DNA from: Kondoa subrosea
Taxonomy: Eukaryota
DNA length: 64,000 nucleotides
NCBI GenBank assembly: GCA_039545335.1
Contig: BCIN01000002.1
Location: forward strand, 1,563,118 to 1,627,117
Direction: 5' to 3'
This document shows positions 42,706 through 63,721 of this stretch, one piece after another. A program made the translations under genes and the position numbers. Within the stretch, counting starts at the first letter, position 1; each line of letters starts with the position of its first letter. Under the pieces are notes generated by a model that was not told where the DNA came from, searched no databases, and saw only the letters and a list, made by a program, of their open reading frames with translations.

Positions 42706-45799
<3,094 letters not shown>

Positions 45800-48302: not shown

Positions 48303-48697
48303 GGTTGATAGTGCGAGAGCAAAAGGCCAGAGGCGGCAACAACTCGTCCTCGGCAAAGTTTGGTCAACAAAAACAAACAACCTTGTCCCGTAACGTCGAC
48401 TTTTGGCAGAATTTAGCTGATTAAGGCTGAAGAGGGGAGCTGGTATCAAACAGGAAGTGATCGCGGACCGTAGCAAGCGCGAAGGCAGGGCAATCTTGAG
48501 ACAGGCAGGGACATTTGGCAAAATCTGGCCAAGCAATACGAAGAGCGGTTGAGCGATCTCAGGCAAGATAGAGCAGTGAAGCGGTGAGAAGTGAATCCTA
48601 GGGCTGTTCGCTTCAGACTGTGAGATCCAGTAGGCTTTTTGAGAATTTCGGCAGAAATGCTTACTAAGCACATTGATACACCACAGTCAACCCAGCT

Positions 48698-49891
48698 ATG
48701 GCACATTGCGCCTCTGTATCTAGAGCGCTATCAATCTTGGACCTCTCTGTAGAGCTTTTGAGCGCCATCTTTGTTCAACTGAAAACAAGAGACTTGATCA
48801 ATACGATCCTCACATGCAAACACTTCGCAGCAATAGCTTCTGATCGTCCTCTATATCATACTCTCGACATTGGTGACTCAGATGACGATCGAATAAATCC
48901 AATTTTTTACCATTTGCTGGCAAATCCTGCGAAAGCAAGAATGGTCCGCAGTCTTACGCTGGCGCATTCGAGAGAGACGGATCTCGACACCAGCTTCGAT
49001 GGGCACAATTTCGCCCTTGCATATGCCACCATATCCCTCTGCCGCGATGTCGTCGAAGTTCGCGACTTCTTCTGCTTCAAAGGTACATGGCGACACAGTC
49101 TCGCTTTCTTAGCCAATCTGGATAATCTGACTACCCTCACTCTGTTCAACGTGCAATGGATGACCAAGGATCTCCACACTTTTTCAATGAGCGACGTCTT
49201 CGACCTTCTTTCACTGCCCTCTCTGAAACGATTATCGCTTGACTCATGGAGTGTCAATCCACAGGAAGAGTTTGTGCAAGTCATTCCGCTCTGCAAATCA
49301 AGAATTCAAGTTCTCGAGATTACAGACTTCGAATTGACCGACCATCAGCTCGATACTTTGCTAGCGTGCTGCTCTGGTTCTCTGTTGGCTCTTCAGCTCT
49401 ACAGTGAACAAGACACATTCCCTGCCTTAACACTCAAAATCATCGCTGAAAGATGTCCAAATCTGGAGATTCTGGTTTTGGAGACCTATAAGACCTTAAT
49501 TGATCCTGCCCGTACAATTGTTGACGATAATTGCTGGCTGCTACAACTAGCAGCGCTACAAAGTCTCGCTATATCGTCGAGCTTTCTAGCCTTAGATAAA
49601 GCTTTGACATTTGCCAACCGCCTGGATCACCTCGGGATCAAGCGAATCGGTAACTTTTCACTCTCATGGCTACTACTTTGTATCAAGAGTTGGACAAGCA
49701 ATGTCCCATTGAACTTGGGCTTGTCTTGGAACCTTGACGTCTATGATGACCGACTATTCCAAGTCAGCCATCTCCTCCTGCCTCACATACTGCTGTACTC
49801 ACACAGTACATAGGCCATTTGTGACGAGAACAGGATATGCCGGTCGGAGGGATGGCGCTGCAAAGAAGACGCACGATATTTCGACTCTTAG
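48698..49891 (+). CDS. F-box / LRR protein
   Basis: ILDLSVELLSAIFVQL..RDL....LTCKHF F-box; LRR-like LTTLTL, LKRLSL, CPNLEILVL; intron ~49763-49812. Confidence 0.82.
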
Positions 49892-50018: not shown

Positions 50019-51375
50019 TCAAGTTTCGACCATCGCCCCATTCCGAAAGCGATGGACCTTTCCTTCACCGACATTGTATCTGCTGCTTATCAGCCATGCC
50101 ATCCAAACCTAAAATGGCCAGCTGACCTGTAATAATCTAAGCCAAATTCAGTATAATCGGCAAGAGCTAGATGTATCGACTCACTATTCGTGCCTGCTAC
50201 GTTCATAGCTCGCCTGAAGGTGATGTTCATCCTGCCTATATCGCAAGATAAGAAATTCTTCTACGAAAGCGAACAGCGTTCTCACCTTCAGCTTTCGCCC
50301 GTTTTGGTATCGCATGAAGCCAACACGACTGTGTTGTCCCTTTCATTACTATCATAGTACCGCTTTCCAAGCTGAACTTCTCTGTTGGAACGGTCTTATC
50401 CGTTTTGTGCTTCATCTGGAAATCGCGAGTTCCGCCTAAAGAAAGTGAAGCTATATTCGGTAGTGGGCCTCTGATACAAATTGAGCTCGAAATAGGCGTG
50501 AGTAGGCGGAAACTCAACAGGAAAGACTCGTCATCGCTGTGAAAGCTGATCGAGTCCTTGCCATCAGCATCTAATTTCAAATGTATCAGGTCTGGTCTGG
50601 AGCACAGACTACATTATAGTGGCTGACAATAATTGACTCTGTCGAACAGACTTCATGAGCTCCAGAACGCTATGACCAAGTAATGAGACATACAGGATAA
50701 AGTTGTAATGCGCTCCTGTCCGTTCTTCGACATATGCTTTCAACGTTTGTAGTATTTCAGGAAAAGGCCTTGATATTGACTGCTTCACCGCAGTCCTCTG
50801 CATGGAGGTCTTTGCGCCTACCTTGGTCTAATCTTGTACTTTGAGCTACTTGGATCTGTTCCCGTTTCATCTTGGCCCCACACGCATGTATACCGTGGAG
50901 TTTTGATATCCATTGGACCTTTCTTGTAGCAAACACGATAGAAAGGGAATTCTGAACGGATGTATTCGAAGAGTTGCTTGCGCATGTTGAAAGTCAAAAA
51001 GTCCTTAGGCGCGAAGTAGAGCAAATCCAGACTGATGCATCATATCAGACGATGTGTGATATACACGATTGTCATTAGAGCTTACTCTGGCGTCTTTCTT
51101 ATCACTCTAGGCTCCGAGGTGCAATAGCCATCTGCAAGATTGAAAGGAGGTGGAACGATAGCAAGAGGATCAGCAGATGAAGGACCAGAAGCTATAGCCG
51201 ATGATCCAATCGCAGGCACGGAAAGCTGTGATCTGCTAGAACTGTTCGAAGCTGTTGCAGGTTTGATCTTCTTACGGTCTGGCGTTGCAAGAGGTGCTAC
51301 ATCTTCTTCATCCGAAAGCAATGAGATGACTTCGGGCTCAGCCTTGCGTTTAAAGCCCAAGGTAGCTTGCTTCAT
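50019..51375 (-). CDS. AlkB-family 2OG-Fe(II) dioxygenase (ALKBH2/3-like)
   Basis: TPRYT, YNFILVNYYADGKDSISFHSDDE (HxD), IASLSLG..RDF, WLHAIPKR, RMNITFRR. Confidence 0.92.
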
Positions 51376-51512: not shown

Positions 51513-54500
51513 TCAATAGAAAGCTGTTTTTGCCAAAAACGAGGTTCTCCTCAAGCCATTGTGACCCATCTCCTGATCGTACATAACTGCTCCATCAGAA
51601 GAAACACAGATCGTCCAAGCCAAATCCTTCATTGTCTGAAAGCCAAGTGTTTCTAGAGCTTGAGGCGGTAGGATTGGTTTGATGGTGCCCAGATCGATGT
51701 AATCGCTCTTTTTGTTAAACAAGGCATTGATACGAGAACAGCATTCCAAGAACCAAAGAGCTTTGACTTCAGGCTTGCGCAACAAGTTGCATGTAACTTG
51801 ATTCTTCTTCTTTTGGCAAATACTCATCTTCGATGCAGCATCGATAAAGCTACCAAATGTTGGGAAGCCGCCCTCGATCCAAGGGCAGTAGTCGCATATT
51901 GAGCCGATTCTTCCACCAAGCTTAGTGTACTCAATCTCGAAAATTCCTTGCTTGTTAAGTGTTTTGAGAACATCATAGAGCTGGGCAAGGCATATTTAGG
52001 CATCTGGCGTTCATATTGTATGGTTTGTACTTACAGGTAAGAAGCAGAAGATGTCTCTACGATCAGTGATGTGGGAAGGAACAGCTAGACCATCACTTTG
52101 CGAGCTGGATGAGGAGGTCAGCGACATGCTTGAGCTCGATAGGGAAGAGAAAGAGCCGGGTGTTATTGACGAGGGAGGACTAGGAGAACTGAGAGGCGTT
52201 GCATCACGCTTTCCATTGACTGGCTTTTTGATAGGTTTTCTGTTGTGCAGGGCGGCAGAGATGACTGTATACATCGACTGATGAGCACAACCGAAAGGAA
52301 CGAATAGGATAACCGACAAGGCTTATTCTCTAGGAAGTCCAGCTTATGGCCTGACATAATGAAAGCGGCATCGACTGAATAAGAGTGTCAGATAGGATGC
52401 ATACATCGCGCAGCTGTTGATTTACCTATTTGAGATTGCCGGTGCATGTCCTGTAGTGTGGTTAGTGCTTGTTTCTACTACGGTCATTTTCACCAACCTT
52501 GATGAATTGGCCAAACAGTGTTCTCGCGCCGGAGAAGCGTGTGAAGAATTCCAGCTTGCAGACGATGACAAGTTTGCTTTTACTTCGAGTCAAAGCCACA
52601 TTCGCACGTCTTTTATTGCTCAAGAATCCAGGCGCATCTGTTCGGACCAAGGAGAGAATGATGTGATCGGCTTCGTGACCTTGAACAGTATCGACAGTTC
52701 TGCAAGCAGAATTCAATCTTTTAATCGGCCCATGATTAGAAGTAACCCACCGTATACGATCCTCGACGATGTTCTCGTCAATCTGATCTGTTGGGTTGGC
52801 TCGGTTATGTTCGCGTATAGCTTGTCCCAGCTTGACTCTGATCAATTCGCCTTGCTTGTTGTAGGCGACAATACAAATCCAGCTGGATTTCTTGACGAAT
52901 TGATTCATGATCAATTGTACGGCCAGAATAGCTTCTTCTTCGTTTACTAGACCCGTTCCGATTGTCGACTCATGACCTTCTTTTGCATCAACAAAGGCAA
53001 CCGAGCAGCCAGCTGCAGGGGCTTTTGCAGATATCAATCTGGAATCATAGACATTGACGCTAATCCAATTTCCCACGTCTGGCGGAAAGCTGATTGCGAG
53101 CGGTCAAGACAGTCTCTCTTGTTTGTAAGCAGCTGAGATTGCATACCGATATTGATAGGACAACAGAGCACCTGGAGCAATGTGAGCATGCTACAGACAA
53201 ACATCTCTCCGGCTTACCTCCTGCAAAGATCTCATAAATACTCTGTACATCCTGAGACTGTTCATTGCCAAAGGGAGCCAGCTGTTTAGGGTCACCGACA
53301 AACGATACTCTTCGTAACGTTTTCCGATACAGAGCAAATAGATGCGGTAGCGCGAAAGTAGGGATTTGCGAAGCTTCATCAATAAGAAGATGTCGTAGCT
53401 TGCGATCTTGCAAGACAGAAACCAAACGAGAGCTAGATAGCTGCGCTAAAGAGCACAAAAGAACAGTGTTGGGGCCAATACGTTCTTCAAGATCGTCCAC
53501 GCTCATCTCCCTTAGCTGAGAAGTTTTGATTACATGCTGGTGCATGTCAAGGTATCCAGTTTCGTGGAAATCGACATAGAAGCCATCGGCGACGATGATC
53601 TGCCCCTCTTCAGCATCAGTGGGTGTATTTGTTGTTCAGGGTCCAACATACGCAAAAATCCGTCACCTCCTTCTTCAGCAAAGCGACTGCCAAATCTACG
53701 GTGAATGTGGAAGTAAGCGATCACACAGACCATCATAGCAAAATAATCACTTCGCACCGCAGCATTAGTTTGAGCTGCTATCACAATGAAGTGATCGTCA
53801 AGATGGGCTGTCGCCTTGACGAGTGACGAGATTGTATGAGTTTTTCCAGTACCAGGCTACGGCAGATCTCAGCGAACAAGAAAGTTGTTATTCAAGTCGA
53901 CATACAGGACCATGGATCATATTCAGACTAGCGCCGCACAGCATGCTCTGCACTGCAGCTCGTTGCGATTCGTTGAGGTCGTCATCAATCTCGTATTCGG
54001 AAAGTAGCCTGGTCTCATGTAGTTCTCCCCCAGCAAAAATATGGTTGACGAAAGGGACTTGATCGAGGTCGATTTCGCTGTAAAGAACGCCATTGATAAA
54101 AGCAGAGCTAGGACGGTTCATAAGTAAATGACATAGGGTTCAGATGAGCAGCGTACATGGAGAATTCATCTGCGGCCTTAGACATAGCTCGATCGATGAC
54201 CCTGAGCTGCTCGATTTCCGATGCTTCTACTACTTTCTCTAGCTTGATCCTCTTCTCTCGACCATAGTCAGCAACAGTGACCCGTCCATGAACGACTGAG
54301 CCATCTTTCAGAGTAGCTTCAATCGATTCTTTTGCTTCAAGCTGGATGGAGCGCGAAATCACGAAGAATTCGATGCGAAGAAGAGGAAAGCTTACCTTAT
54401 CACGGAAAGAACGAGAAATAACTGTATAGCTACCATCCAAATTCCGCTCGATCTTGATGAATGAAGAAATGTAAGCTGATGGCTGACAACTGCGCACAAC

Positions 54501-55308
54501 GCAACGAGCAGCGTCTGTGGGTTTGTTAGATGACGAATTTTGACGAGTGAACTCGTGAACTTACTGTGCTGTGCAAGCCAGCTCAATGTAACTGGATCAA
54601 CAGTCATAAGGTCTAGTCTCGGTGTCTTGCTGGTTGTAGCGCTTTCTTTGATGCTGCATTGGTAGGTCAAGTATCCAATAAGGCAAGCATACTGAAGATG
54701 AGCGGGTTCGAGAAAGTCTTCTTTCCAATCGCCTGCCGTGAGGTAGTCTCGATTTTCATAAAGTGGTTGGCCTGGGGTGTATAGCTTGGAGAAGAGTCCA
54801 AAAAGAGTGAGCGGAGATTTTGCTTCTTGACCTAAATGACTTGCGTTGTATACTCGTGTGAGACAAAGAGCGTTGCTCGTAATATCTTTGAAACAGAATT
54901 CAGCAGAAGATTGTCAGAAAGCACAATGGACTGACGGCCAAGTTCATGGTATAGCAATAGAGCGGTAACATCCATGTCTACGCCAGCTTTTGACACGTCC
55001 GGACTTGACAGTATGCTCTCAAGGACTTCATTCATTTCAGGTCTGTTCGACGGTACAGTGATGAGCAGACATCTTGTCTCGGTCGACAGAAGGATGATCG
55101 AAAGCTTCCACTTATCGCAGACGATAGATAAGCCAAGTAGATCACCAGCATAGTCTTCGTAAAGCCAATCCAAGTTTTCTTCGTTTAGATAACTGTAAGA
55201 TACCTTTTGGCCCAGGAAACCCTTTGGCTGCTTCGGGATCCCATGAAACAGAGGAAAAGTCACAGGAAAGATGTCGTTCTCCATGTTCAGCCCGGAGACA
55301 GATCGCAT
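51513..55308 (-). CDS. UPF1/DNA2-like SF1B helicase with degenerate N-terminal 3'-5' exonuclease-like domain and C-terminal LOTUS/OST-HTH-like repeats (start uncertain)
   Basis: LNESQRAAV, IHGPPGTGKT, AQTNAAV, LIDEASQ, VGDPKQLAP, TVDTVQGHEAD, PGFLSNKRRANVALTRSK. Introns join the 51513-52430 exons in frame. The helicase call is firm; the accessory-domain calls are inference. Confidence 0.85.
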
Positions 55309-55671: not shown

Positions 55672-58387
55672 CTAGCGAGATGACAAAGCCTGCAAAAAAA
55701 GTAATCAGCCTAGTCATGAAGTAGTCCAGGCGAAACTAACCTTTTGCAGAGCACGACGCAAGTTGAGGTGGACCTTTTTGAGTTCATCTCCGGATGCATC
55801 TTCCATTTCGAGCTTCTCAAGAGCTGCTGCCAGCTGTTGTTCAATGGCTCCCTTTTGTCCACGCTTCATCTTAGCGCCGAAGTCTGGGCTTGAAATAGTT
55901 TGTTCAACAGTTTGAACGTACTAAGGTTCTGAGTCAGAGAGGTTTCGGAGAGCAAGGGATAATGAACGCACGGTCTCGAGCTCCTGCTTAGCAGTGTGCT
56001 TATCAGAGAATTCCTTGTCCGCAGCCTTGAACTTTTCAGCGTTTGCAACCATCTCGTCAATTTCCGCGCTCGATAGGCGACCGACAGAGTTGGTGATGGT
56101 GATGTTTGCTTTCCTTCCTGATGTGCGATCTTGAGCAGAGACCTTGAGCAGACCGTTTGCGTCAACTTCGAAAGTGCAGACCAATTCAGCTTGACCACGG
56201 GGTTGAGGTGTAATGCCTGAAAGTTCGAACTCGCCCAACAGACGGTTCTCTTTGCATGTAACACGCTCTCCTTCGTAGACTGGGAAAGTGACCGTTGTTT
56301 GCTAAACCAAATCGCATCAGCCGCTGACATGCTAGACAGTAGAAACAATACTCACATTGTCTTCAACGGTGGTGAAAGTTCTCGACTTGTTGGTTGGGAT
56401 AGGGGTATTTCTTGGTACAACTGAAGCGAAGATGTCGCCTTGCATGGCAACACCGAGAGAAAGAGGAGCAACATCGAGAAGAAGAAGATCAGCGGTCTTG
56501 TCTGATGTTTGACCGGTGAGGACGGCTGCCTGAACGGCGGCACCGTAAGCAACGGCTTCATCAGGGTTAATCGACTTGTTGAGTTGACGGCCTCCGAAGT
56601 ACTCGGAAACAAGAGACTGGATCTTGGGAATACGGGTAGATCCACCGACCAATACGATATCGTCAACCTTGGCTTTGTCCATCTTGGCATCTTTCAAGAC
56701 CTTCTCTACTGGCTCGATTGTAGATTTGAATGCAACGGCGTTGATTTCTTCGAAACGAGCGCGGGAGATGGAAGCTTGGAAGTCGGTACCCTATTGACAA
56801 ACATGATTAACACGCTGACTTCTGGCCAAACCTAGAGAAGCTCACTTGGAAGAGAGAGTCGACTTCGATGGTGGTCTGGGTAACACTTGAGAGGGTTCTC
56901 TTGGCACGTTCGCAAGCACTCCTCAATCTCCTCAAAGCACGAGCATCGCCTTCAATGTCCAACTTGTTCTTCTTCTTAAATTCAGCCTTGAAGTGCTCGA
57001 GTAAAGCGTTATCGAAATCTTCACCACCCAAATGTGTGTCACCAGCAGTAGCCTTGACTGCGAACACACCACCAGTAATGGAAAGCAAAGATACATCGAA
57101 AGTTCCTCCTCCAAGATCGAAAATCAAGACATTTCGTTCTGTCTTGGCTTTCTGGTTGCTGGCATCAAGACCGTAAGCGATGGCTGCTGCTGTTGGCTCG
57201 TTGATGATACGGAGAACGTCAAGACCGGCGATTTTACCAGCATCCTTTGTTGACAGACGCTGAGAGTCGTTGAAGCTTTCGACGAGGTTTAGCTCGAGTC
57301 AGGCTTATACGAATGAGACTCACTAAGCTGGTACGGTAACAACTGCCTTCTTTACTTCTGTTCCGAGCTTGGCTTCAGCGATTTCCTTGAGCTTGACCAA
57401 GACCATGGCGGAGATTTCAGCTGGAGAGAAGATCTTTTCTTCGCCTTGGTACTCGACCTTGATGTTTGGTGATCCATCCTTGTCACTGTATACCAGATGA
57501 GCGCGGTCAATTATCGGAGACTATGCAACAGACATGACTTCGAAAGGCCAGTGCTTGATGTCTGCCTTGACTTCTGGGTCGTCGAATCGTCGACCAATAA
57601 GACGCTTGGCATCTGTGCAGAGCGATAAGCTAGAGAAATGGAAGGACTGCGGCACGAAACATACCGAAAACAGTCTGAGCAGATCAATCTGATGTCAGAT
57701 GTTGGTCAGGCCAGAGATGATTGCAAGCTCACGTATTTTGGGTTCATGGCGGCCTGTTGGTTTGAGAGAAACAATTGGACAGGACCCTTTGCTATGCGGA
57801 TTCTGACTAACCTGGTTCTTTGCGGCATCACCAATCAGACGTTCTTCTGAGGTGAAAGCGACATAAGAAGGAGTGGTTCGCTGTTATCTCTTATCAATCG
57901 ATGGGTATATATGCTTGAAGGCAGCACAAACGTTTCCCTCTATATGCGCATAAAATTTTCAGCATTTGCCATCCACTTGCTACAGTTTAACTTACGGTCA
58001 TTTGGAATGATTTCGACTCGATCGTTCTGCCATACACCAACGCTATTCATCCTGCATTAGTCTTCCTCAAATCTTGTACAGAAATCTAGCTAACCATGAG
58101 TAGGTTGTGCCCAAATCAATACTGAAGCCAAGTCTTAGATATGCACTGGTCTAATATGTCTGTAACATACCCGATGGCTCCAGTGAATTCTCCAGACTCA
58201 GGTGCTGCTTGATCGCCGGTTGTAGCGTCTAACAAATCATGGCGCATGAACATGAGCGAACAAGAAATTTGATGCCAGAGACTCTTAACAAACCAATCAA
58301 TTCTGGTGGACCACTAGAGAAGTCACAATGAGCATGTAGACCGAACGCTGTAATGATTTTGACTTGCCTGCTGTCAGAATCAGACAT
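55672..58387 (-). CDS. SSB1: Ribosome-associated cytosolic Hsp70, SSB type
   Basis: [66 protein letters not shown]; ends ...RALQKALSSR* with no EEVD. Confidence 0.95.
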
Positions 58388-61186: not shown

Positions 61187-62107
61187 ATGTGGGACACGCC
61201 TCAAGAGACGCTCTGCGGTCTCTGTAAAGAGTTCTACAGTCGTGGACTGACCGGTACAGGTGGTGCTATGAGCTTGGTGCAAGAGTCCGTTCTCGCTTGA
61301 TAAGTGACTGTTCTGTCTCATGCTTCCATCATAGAGAACTGGTCTATATCACTCCATCAGGTATAGCTCTCTTCTCATCTTCTTCACTCCTTTAGCTGAA
61401 GCGGTCAGTAGGTGTCGAGAAAGAACGACTTCAACCTGATCACATCTTCATCCTCAACCGCTCAACGCACGACGTAGTTCAAAGTTCGTCAGATCTGAAA
61501 CTCTCCGATTGTGCACCTTTGTTTCATCTATGTCACGAACTGAAGGAAGCGAAATGTTGTATTCATACGCATTCGATTTGGTCCAATTTGGTCAGCAGGC
61601 TTAGTGATGGCAAAGAGTTCAGGATCAAAGATCAGGAGATGATAAAAGGTGTGTTCAAGCAGTGTTGCGAGAGTCTTCTGACTATATTTCTAGGCTTGAA
61701 AAGAGGAGGAGTGAACTCAAGTTACAGCAATACTGATGAGGTAGTGATACCTATTATCGATAAGTATGTCTGTACGAATGTTCTCTCTTGGCTTATTGTT
61801 CATTTCTATGCGCAGCGCACCGACAGAAAGCGAGCTTCTGCCTGGAATGCAAAAGGTATGTTTAAAGTCCATCTGACTTTACTCTTCTCAACGAGGTTGT
61901 ACAGGCATTGCAAAACTATCCTGATGCGCCTTGTGTTCTAGTTCGCGGACATGGCGTCTTCACATGGGGATCAAGTGAGTAAAGTTCAGCTGAAAAGACA
62001 TACTGCTGACCATTTGAATAGGTTGGGTCAAGGCCAAATGTCAACTGGAATGTCTGGACTACCTCTTTGAACTTGCAGTGAGGAAGAAAGGTCTTGGCGT
62101 GTCGTGA
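61187..62107 (+). CDS. MDE1: Methylthioribulose-1-phosphate dehydratase (MtnB/APIP, class II aldolase fold)
   Basis: LCKEFY..TGTGG, TPSGVEKER, SDCAPLF, IHTHS, QEMIKG, PIIDN, LVRGHGVFTWG, ECLDYLFE. Confidence 0.88.
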
Positions 62108-62741: not shown

Positions 62742-63721
62742 ATGTCGCAACGACTTCGCCTGAAACAGCTATCAAAATCCATCGAATTGGCATGCAAGCG
62801 TTCATTATCGACTGAAGCCTCCTCTGCTCCAGAAGCAGACACCATTACCTACACAAGGTCCATACTCGAAGCTCGTTCACGTCGACAGCTTATCTGTATG
62901 TAGCTTCCCCAATCTACACACATACAATGCAATCTTACAGTGCCGTCCTTTTTTTCCAAACAGTACAAGAACTTGGAGCACTAGGATCTACTCAAACTAG
63001 AGAAAACACTTTTCAACCTCATCATACATTACATCGACCAGAAAGTTCACCTACTTTATCCATGCTTTTAGCCAGCACAGCACATTTAGGTCATAATACT
63101 TCTTTAGCTAACGAAGCTTCTTATTCTGCTATTTATGGTACAAGAAATGGGTTCAGCGTTATTGATGTGCGACAGACGTTGAGTGGGTTGAAGAGAGCTT
63201 GTGGGGTTGTTAGAAGTGTGGTAGAGCAAGATGGAACGGTTGTATTCGTCGGTGGTACGCAACAGATAGTGGATGTTAACGCTAAAAGAATGGGAGAGAA
63301 TGGGTTTGGTACTGTCAAGTGGAGACCAGGTTCGTTGGCTTGTGCTAACATCAGATTATTCGCTGATGTGGGAGCACTTCAACAAACAGGAACGATATCT
63401 AACGCCTCGCAAATCTTTCGTACAACCAAAGTCTTCAAACCTTCTCTTCTTATTCTCCTTACACCGCTGAATAACGTATGGGCCCTGAAAGAAGCAACTC
63501 AAGCCAATATTCCAACAATAGGCATTATCGATTCCAACGTGGATCCGCGCTCTGTGACTTACCCTATTCCGGCAAACGACGATTCCATAAGATGCTTGGA
63601 ATTGATTGCTGGTACTTTGGCTTTAGCTGGAAAACAAGGGATGGAAAATCGATTGGCTAAACAGGCAGCAAGGGAATCTGGGCCGCCTGGAAGAGCTAGA
63701 AAGCAGCTCAGGCATCAATGA
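62742..63721 (+). CDS. MRP4: Mitochondrial ribosomal protein uS2m
   Basis: LLASTAHLGH, IYGTRNG..VID, WRPG, IPTIGIIDSNVDP..VTYPIPANDDS; presequence-like N-terminus. Confidence 0.92.

Follow-up and report, generated by a model that had tools for sequence, protein, structure and literature searches.

A predicted divergent member of an exonuclease-like plus Upf1-like SF1B helicase family in Kondoa subrosea

A stretch of 64,000 nucleotides (nt) from Kondoa subrosea (NCBI GenBank assembly GCA_039545335.1, contig BCIN01000002.1, positions 1,563,118 to 1,627,117 of the forward strand; hereafter the window) was analysed for a multi-exon gene on its minus strand. With a probability of about 70%, the gene is read as encoding a ~1025-amino-acid (aa), divergent member of a family that joins an exonuclease-like domain, a conserved middle region and an Upf1-like superfamily 1B (SF1B) helicase; the exonuclease domain would be dead and act as a binding module, and a C-terminal extension would have been added. 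A preliminary description of the same DNA had proposed one spliced polypeptide made of a pseudo-exonuclease, a complete SF1B helicase core and tandem LOTUS-like domains. The predicted parts of the gene, in window coordinates, are:

51513..55308, minus strand: whole predicted coding sequence, 15 exons, 1025 aa, GT-AG chain
54565..55308, minus strand: predicted exonuclease-dead DEDDy (WRN/EXD2-type) domain, exons 1-2, aa 1-231
53993..54514, minus strand: conserved middle region that separates the exonuclease-like domain from the helicase, exon 3 to the first part of exon 5, aa ~232-371
52498..53992, minus strand: SF1B/Upf1-like helicase core, aa ~372-766
52318..52450, minus strand: short conserved tail (DMHRQSQI..SGHKLDFLENKP), exons 12-13, aa 767-793
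52035..52264, minus strand: basic stretch, then Ser/Pro-rich low-complexity linker, exon 14, aa 794-870
51513..51980, minus strand: orphan C-terminal globular region, put forward earlier as LOTUS-like, exon 15, aa 871-1025, 155 aa

Homologues were searched for by HMMER with the RecA2 piece of the helicase over 1.84 billion representative proteins, and 1813 proteins were returned at E up to 1e-3, 59 of them at E up to 1e-10. Among the best full-length matches were three proteins annotated only as hypothetical protein:

P0002: Geranomyces variabilis KAJ3185153.1, 841 aa
P0005: Thoreauomyces humboldtii KAJ3019899.1, 1216 aa
P0010: Edaphochlamys debaryana KAG2489443.1, 2096 aa, two tandem units

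The Kondoa protein is collinear with all three from its N-terminus to ~25 aa past the helicase, and shares with them an exonuclease-like domain, a middle region, an Upf1-like core and a 'G-x-x-L-[DE]-F' tail in the same order. Identity to P0002 was 40% over 737 columns, and the N-terminal, middle and helicase segments matched it by phmmer at 2e-27, 3.4e-13 and 1.7e-114, respectively. The closest relatives were unannotated environmental open reading frames (ORFs), namely P0006 and P0019 at 68-69% identity and P0004 at 49%. A word-index search of longer proteins with the RecA2 piece gave one weak match (P0001), and a metagenome scan with the same piece found no relative. In Edaphochlamys P0010, two complete exonuclease plus helicase units stand in tandem and both keep the DEDDy residues; either the tandem fusion is genuine or two gene models were run together.

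The N-terminal domain was assigned through these homologues. P0002 carries PF01612, the WRN/EXD2 domain family, at residues 52-201 ahead of its helicase (30.1 bits vs a cut-off of 23.6), and its N-terminus aligned with EXD2 (6.4e-9) and the WRN exonuclease (0.002) with the D-x-E, D and Y-x3-D elements in register and all DEDDy residues intact. The Kondoa exon-1 and exon-2 ORFs matched the P0002 N-terminus by BLASTP (7e-14 and 2e-13, respectively), as did the spliced N-terminus by phmmer. Three Kondoa segments aligned to the Exo motifs of this PF01612-bearing homologue, each at the place given in the preliminary description:

55134-55117, minus strand: ExoI, GLSIVC
54972-54952, minus strand: ExoII position, DVTALLL
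54697-54671, minus strand: ExoIII, LQYACLIGY

At ExoI, the Kondoa protein has S-I-V where P0002, P0010 and EXD2 carry D-x-E. At ExoII it has Thr (DVTALLL vs KDALLL in P0002), and at ExoIII the Tyr is kept and the Asp replaced by Ile (LQYACLIGY vs LSYGVLDAW in P0002), so that the columns D, E, D and D of the DEDDy set read S, V, T and I. WRN and EXD2 are active nucleases, and the DEDDy residues are intact in P0002 and P0010; the Kondoa protein, like P0005, has lost them, and none of the four acidic residues is left in the Kondoa protein. The transitive homology to PF01612 together with S-I-V, T and Y-x3-I at the catalytic columns therefore confirms the pseudo-exonuclease proposed earlier; the domain is, on this alignment, a catalytically dead DEDDy domain of WRN/EXD2 type.

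The helicase core carries motifs I, II, III, IV, V and VI, named by the established nomenclature (I, II, V and VI, the arginine finger, among them). The following were located in it:

53977-53963, minus strand: Q-motif LNESQ
53911-53839, minus strand: Walker A GPPGTGKT, interrupted by intron 5
53380-53366, minus strand: DEASQ
53296-53273, minus strand: GDPKQLAP
53154-53086, minus strand: QYRF, interrupted by intron 9
52698-52666, minus strand: TVDTVQGHEAD
52611-52582, minus strand: RRANVALTRS

Pfam was run on the gene as nine separate ORF pieces. The RecA2 half matched AAA_12 (PF13087) at 85.6 bits (cut-off 27; E 4.2e-24). The coding sequence of RecA1 is spread across four exons, and its separate pieces scored 11.9, 19.7 and 23.4 bits against AAA_11 (PF13086; cut-off 27), the three split-exon ORFs giving partial AAA_11, AAA_30 and AAA_19 matches; the collinear homologue P0002 reached 59.3 bits for AAA_11. 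By phmmer against the PDB, the nearest solved chains were Aquarius, IGHMBP2, Upf1/Nam7, Dna2 and Sen1; exon 11 aligned to yeast Upf1 across motifs V and VI, and exon 8 gave no match at E 0.1. The motifs, the AAA_12 score and the PDB matches thus bear out the complete SF1B core claimed in the preliminary description, a core of Upf1-like type. Helicase motifs and AAA_11/AAA_12 are shared with Upf1, IGHMBP2, Sen1, Aquarius, Dna2 and ZNFX1, none of which has a DEDDy domain. Similarity to the solved Upf1-like helicases is confined to the RecA core (E ~1e-6 for the Kondoa protein, 1e-18 for P0002), and the Kondoa protein has no CH domain, zinc fingers or PD-(D/E)XK nuclease.

Conservation extends on both sides of the core. 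The middle region matched P0002 (BLASTP 9e-7; phmmer 3.4e-13) and Thoreauomyces P0005 (phmmer 2.2e-8). The short tail behind the helicase aligned with P0002 and P0005 and shared 14 of 21 residues with the environmental ORF P0006, where similarity ends at ENKPC.

A family hidden Markov model (HMM) was built from the N-terminal 400 aa of five rows (the Kondoa model, P0002, P0005 and both halves of P0010). It matched 26 of 162 collected proteins, 23 of them besides its three source proteins (P0046 at 2e-12, P0086 at 1.2e-11, P0040 at 6.8e-11 and P0028 at 1.1e-10, for example). About 20 helicases of ~750 aa, labelled 'DNA2/NAM7 helicase-like' or 'P-loop NTPase', have the same layout of exonuclease-like domain, middle region and helicase with degenerate motifs missed by Pfam; the Pfam exonuclease domain was detected in none of the six family proteins tested at E up to 0.1. 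Sources were checked for only some of the HMM-matched ~750-aa helicases, and were Exidia, Pisolithus, Ganoderma and Tetrapyrgos (Agaricomycetes), Tulasnella and Neolecta. These fungal proteins have a related core and a 380-aa N-terminus that matches the family HMM with a likewise degenerate ExoI, but they are shorter than the Kondoa protein, lack its long C-terminal extension and fall on separate branches of the tree. ExoI columns were counted in an alignment of 29 rows, 18 of which covered them: D-x-E was present in 3 of the 18 (P0002 and both P0010 units), Asp alone in 1 (P0005), and neither residue in 14, the Kondoa protein included. In a quick maximum-likelihood tree of 46 rows with Shimodaira-Hasegawa-like approximate likelihood ratio test (SH-aLRT) support, the Kondoa protein grouped with two chytrid proteins (support 100), then with the alga (91) and then with Neolecta (96), and a branch with support 99 set 39 family rows apart from the remaining rows. 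A placement of this kind would point to a fungus of an early-diverging lineage. Because of the collinear alignment, the family HMM and the tree, the combination of exonuclease-like domain and SF1B helicase is taken, at the level of sequence, as an existing, widespread and uncharacterised family present in chytrids and a chlorophyte and degenerate in many Dikarya, and the Kondoa gene as a divergent member of it. The architecture had been described earlier as unfamiliar. Its exonuclease-helicase order is not unique, since it recurs in chytrids, an alga and Dikarya; that no family member is characterised still holds.

The exon chain was obtained by scripted joining of stop-to-stop ORFs and gives one open frame throughout, from the ATG at 55308 to the stop at 51515-51513, in agreement with the single GT-AG-spliced reading frame first noted. 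Exons are given from high to low coordinates:

55308-54936, 54885-54565, 54514-54396, 54341-54157 and 54107-53906, minus strand: exons 1-5
53856-53751, 53695-53652, 53599-53218, 53171-53147 and 53089-52751, minus strand: exons 6-10
52699-52498, 52450-52426, 52374-52318, 52264-52035 and 51980-51513, minus strand: exons 11-15

The 14 predicted introns are each 46-57 nt long and run from GT to AG, and 12 of them (introns 1-12) agree with a collinear, gap-free alignment to P0002, P0005 and P0006. Intron 1 (54935-54886, 50 nt) recovers the conserved '..LGHITSNALCLTRVY' vs '..FGHMLRGGIDITHLY' in the homologue; the in-frame intron 3 corresponds exactly to an 18-residue gap in the BLASTP alignment to P0002; splicing of intron 5 makes the Walker A motif whole; and a close relative's raw ORF reads FIQ-DMHQQSQ without a break where the Kondoa gene has intron 11. 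In a coding-potential test (bits per codon; pooled introns ~ -0.10), each of the 12 exons longer than 100 nt scored higher in its own frame than in the other two forward frames. A first model with a 104-nt intron 1 was dropped when BLASTP of the exon-2 frame against the homologue placed conserved sequence inside it. Enumeration gave no solution with a single intron from exon 11 to the last exon and only poor donors for a two-intron link, and the accepted chain has three short introns there.

Characterised Upf1-like enzymes use ATP hydrolysis to move 5'-to-3' along single-stranded nucleic acid. Because its helicase motifs are intact, the Kondoa protein is predicted to do likewise, as an ATP-driven translocase or helicase that moves 5'-to-3' along single-stranded RNA or DNA. 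Since relatives keep intact DEDDy residues, the ancestor, in a form persisting in Geranomyces and Edaphochlamys, was probably an unwind-and-degrade enzyme in which unwinding was coupled to 3'-5' degradation. The dead domain would have been retained as a binder of a nucleic-acid 3' end or of a partner protein and not as a nuclease; its distribution suggests that it is under selection in many lineages, where it most plausibly binds one or the other. The C-terminal extension, a Ser-rich linker plus ~155 aa that may form a winged helix, would be lineage-specific and was most likely added as a recruitment or substrate-binding module. By analogy with WRN/EXD2 and Dna2, a role at DNA ends is equally possible as a role in RNA silencing, antiviral defence or RNA granules. 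WRN is likewise a fusion of an exonuclease followed by a helicase, but its helicase is of RecQ type (superfamily 2) and not SF1B; Dna2 also couples a nuclease to an SF1B motor.

Several points weigh against this reading. The exonuclease assignment is transitive via homologues because the gene's own N-terminal pieces gave no direct Pfam match: Pfam on the three N-terminal and middle pieces returned no exonuclease, and phmmer of exon 1 against the PDB returned noise only (E >0.5). A word-index homologue search of longer proteins with the N-terminal exon found none. (A Pfam match of exon 4 to FAD_binding_5 at E 0.099 was set aside as noise.) The end branch leading to the Kondoa protein is long, at 1.14 changes per column, and could reflect relaxed constraint. 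The exon chain is predicted from splice sites and homologue alignment, and introns 13 and 14 with the whole C-terminal part are predicted from splice sites and coding statistics. Intron 13 (52317-52265, GTCGGT..TATACAG) has an atypical donor and is the weakest junction of the model, and codon statistics do not favour the frame of exon 14, which scored 0.070 vs 0.177 for one reverse frame. Finally, that the protein acts as a helicase, with what polarity and on RNA or DNA, and that its dead domain serves in binding are predictions from the sequence.

The junction at intron 13 also decides whether one gene or two is present. If two, the helicase would read on past exon 13 to a stop at 52165-52163, giving a protein of ~845 aa, and exons 14-15 would be a separate small gene or non-coding. 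Such a protein would be near the 841 aa of P0002, which ends 74 aa after its helicase; homology with all relatives ends at ENKP, the read-on frame scores 0.121 vs 0.070 for the frame of exon 14, and the GTCGGT donor of intron 13 is atypical. Against this, the promoter of a separate gene would have to fit into a few tens of bases at most: the exon-14 frame has an ATG either upstream of the 52165-52163 stop or ~35 nt after it. Two acceptors, at 52265 and 52220, both enter the exon-14 frame. The canonical 54-nt intron 14 (52034-51981, GTAAGT..CCCAG) unites exon 14 with exon 15, whose frame has the best coding score of six (0.173 vs -0.104 to 0.081). In P0006, the residues C-K follow ENKP and all similarity is then lost in the raw ORF; C-K fits a GTAAR donor preceded by T at the position of intron 13, and the loss of similarity is as it would be for an intron there. 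On balance, the two-gene arrangement appears unlikely, and a single gene that includes the C-terminal part is considered quite likely.

For the C-terminal part of that single gene, the preliminary description had named a Ser-rich linker and two helical repeats of LOTUS-like type. The linker was confirmed (19 Ser in 40 residues). The 155 aa beyond it are the subject of a further reading, in which they form two LOTUS/OST-HTH winged-helix domains and the protein, built of these together with a MUT-7/EXD1-like pseudo-nuclease and a MOV10/SDE3-like helicase, is dedicated to RNA silencing, antiviral defence or RNA granules. In the ESM-Atlas, where feature scores below 0.9 are leads only, the named neighbours of the whole of exon 15 included OST-HTH (0.84) and WHD_Egal (0.82), and for residues 1-72 the three best named clusters were all OST-HTH (0.84, 0.83 and 0.83), followed by WHD_Egal (0.80); all of these scores lie below that mark. 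The single-sequence AlphaFold2 model of exon 15, of low confidence (predicted local distance difference test, pLDDT, 35.1), showed twice over a helix, a short strand, a short helix, a helix and two strands; the first 75 aa alone reached a pLDDT of 43.1, and neither value sufficed for a fold search. Against an OST-HTH HMM built from 30 Bacteroidota domains, repeat 1 scored 2.2 bits (equalled by 11 of 1000 shuffles) but repeat 2 scored -1.5 bits (389 of 1000 shuffles), and hhalign against the same 30 domains gave probabilities of 5.2% (out of register) and 0.2%. No significant similarity was seen between one half of exon 15 and the other (BLASTP E 6; MAFFT likewise), and the two repeats were not confirmed. 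Pfam gave no match at E up to 10 for the C-terminal exon, whole or in halves, OST-HTH (PF12872) included, and neither did phmmer against the PDB at E up to 10.

Similarity to every relative ends at '..LDFLENKP', and no homologue of the C-terminal part was found by phmmer among the 162 collected proteins, the last 230 aa being unmatched in P0002, P0005 and P0010. The C-terminal exon gave none in a word-index search for near homologues or in a metagenome scan; its pieces had no NCBIfam match, and matched only PHROGs families of unknown function at E 0.08 or worse. (A 'KRDAT' string common to exon 14 and the P0002 tail in MAFFT was absent from BLASTP and was not counted as evidence.) With LOTUS/OST-HTH proteins (Oskar, TDRD5/7 and MARF1; PF12872) and the Egalitarian winged helix (PF23713), the Kondoa C-terminus thus shares a language-model likeness of 0.80-0.84 and a compatible secondary structure of low confidence only, and no HMM, profile or structural match. 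LOTUS membership is not established on these comparisons, and the tandem LOTUS-like domains, with the silencing or granule factor, appear unlikely. The Kondoa gene is an uncharacterised helicase and not a demonstrated silencing factor.

A broader version, in which an ancient WRN-like SF1B unwind-and-degrade machine, with its full catalytic set retained in some chytrids and green algae, lost its nuclease in this lineage and gained tandem LOTUS-like winged-helix domains to become a three-module RNA regulator, is rather improbable. A decaying gene or pseudogene, in which the lost catalytic residues and the long branch would reflect loss of function of the whole locus, is very improbable: all four acidic exonuclease residues are gone, the end branch measures 1.14 and the nearest relatives are short environmental ORFs at 68% identity at most, but the frame is open across 15 exons, the helicase motifs are all intact, 12 of 12 exons longer than 100 nt score best in their own forward frame, and a stable pseudo-enzyme state is favoured over decay because the residue loss is common to Thoreauomyces and many full-length Dikarya-type proteins.

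On the preferred reading, that of a divergent family member whose exonuclease domain is dead, the previously unannotated N-terminal 380 aa of a large set of fungal 'DNA2/NAM7-like' helicases are now tied to a WRN/EXD2-type exonuclease domain, the link passing through chytrid and algal intermediates that carry the catalytic residues. The evolutionary history suggested is that of a coupled exonuclease-helicase that turned into a pseudo-nuclease several times, a convergent parallel to WRN and Dna2. A full-text literature search, with subscription journals mostly outside its scope, found no paper on the exonuclease plus SF1B architecture. If the C-terminal module were LOTUS-like, SF1B helicases in fungi would join the known LOTUS partners. 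If the three-module RNA regulator were true, it would be to fungi what germ-granule and MARF1-type RNA-binding scaffolds are to animals, and the dead exonuclease missed by Pfam would be the hallmark of a large family of surveillance helicases in fungi that has gone unstudied.

Neighbouring genes in the window were as follows:

50236-51375, minus strand: AlkB-type 2OG-Fe(II) (2-oxoglutarate-iron) oxygenase (PF13532, E 1.9e-14, one exon), ATG apparently at 51375
55714-56790 and beyond, minus strand: Hsp70 (PF00012, E 8.4e-54 and 2.7e-28, two exons), ending ~400 nt upstream of the helicase ATG
42971-44431, minus strand: MCM, a housekeeping neighbour
48677-49810, plus strand: F-box protein, a housekeeping neighbour
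61396-61938, plus strand: class II aldolase/adducin domain, a housekeeping neighbour
62816-63718, plus strand: ribosomal protein S2, a housekeeping neighbour

No sign of a mobile element was seen among the nine neighbour pieces scanned, and no tRNA genes were found in the window. Spacing is very compact downstream, the AlkB-type gene starting only 138 nt past the helicase stop. Upstream, a short ATG frame (55527-55360, minus strand) leads into a candidate GTAAGT..CAG intron at 55488-55378 or 55488-55360; it may be a 5'-untranslated-region intron or an upstream ORF, and is unable to extend the main ORF because of an in-frame TAA at 55329-55327. A 184-aa stop-to-stop ORF (52396-52950, plus strand) lies antisense to helicase exons 10-11 and, given the low scores of the reverse frames, is probably open by chance. 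Many bacteria-labelled assemblies hold contigs of ~0.5-2 kb whose Hsp70 shares 60-68% identity with the eukaryotic Hsp70 of the window; several of the contig names give very low coverage, and these contigs look like eukaryotic contamination.

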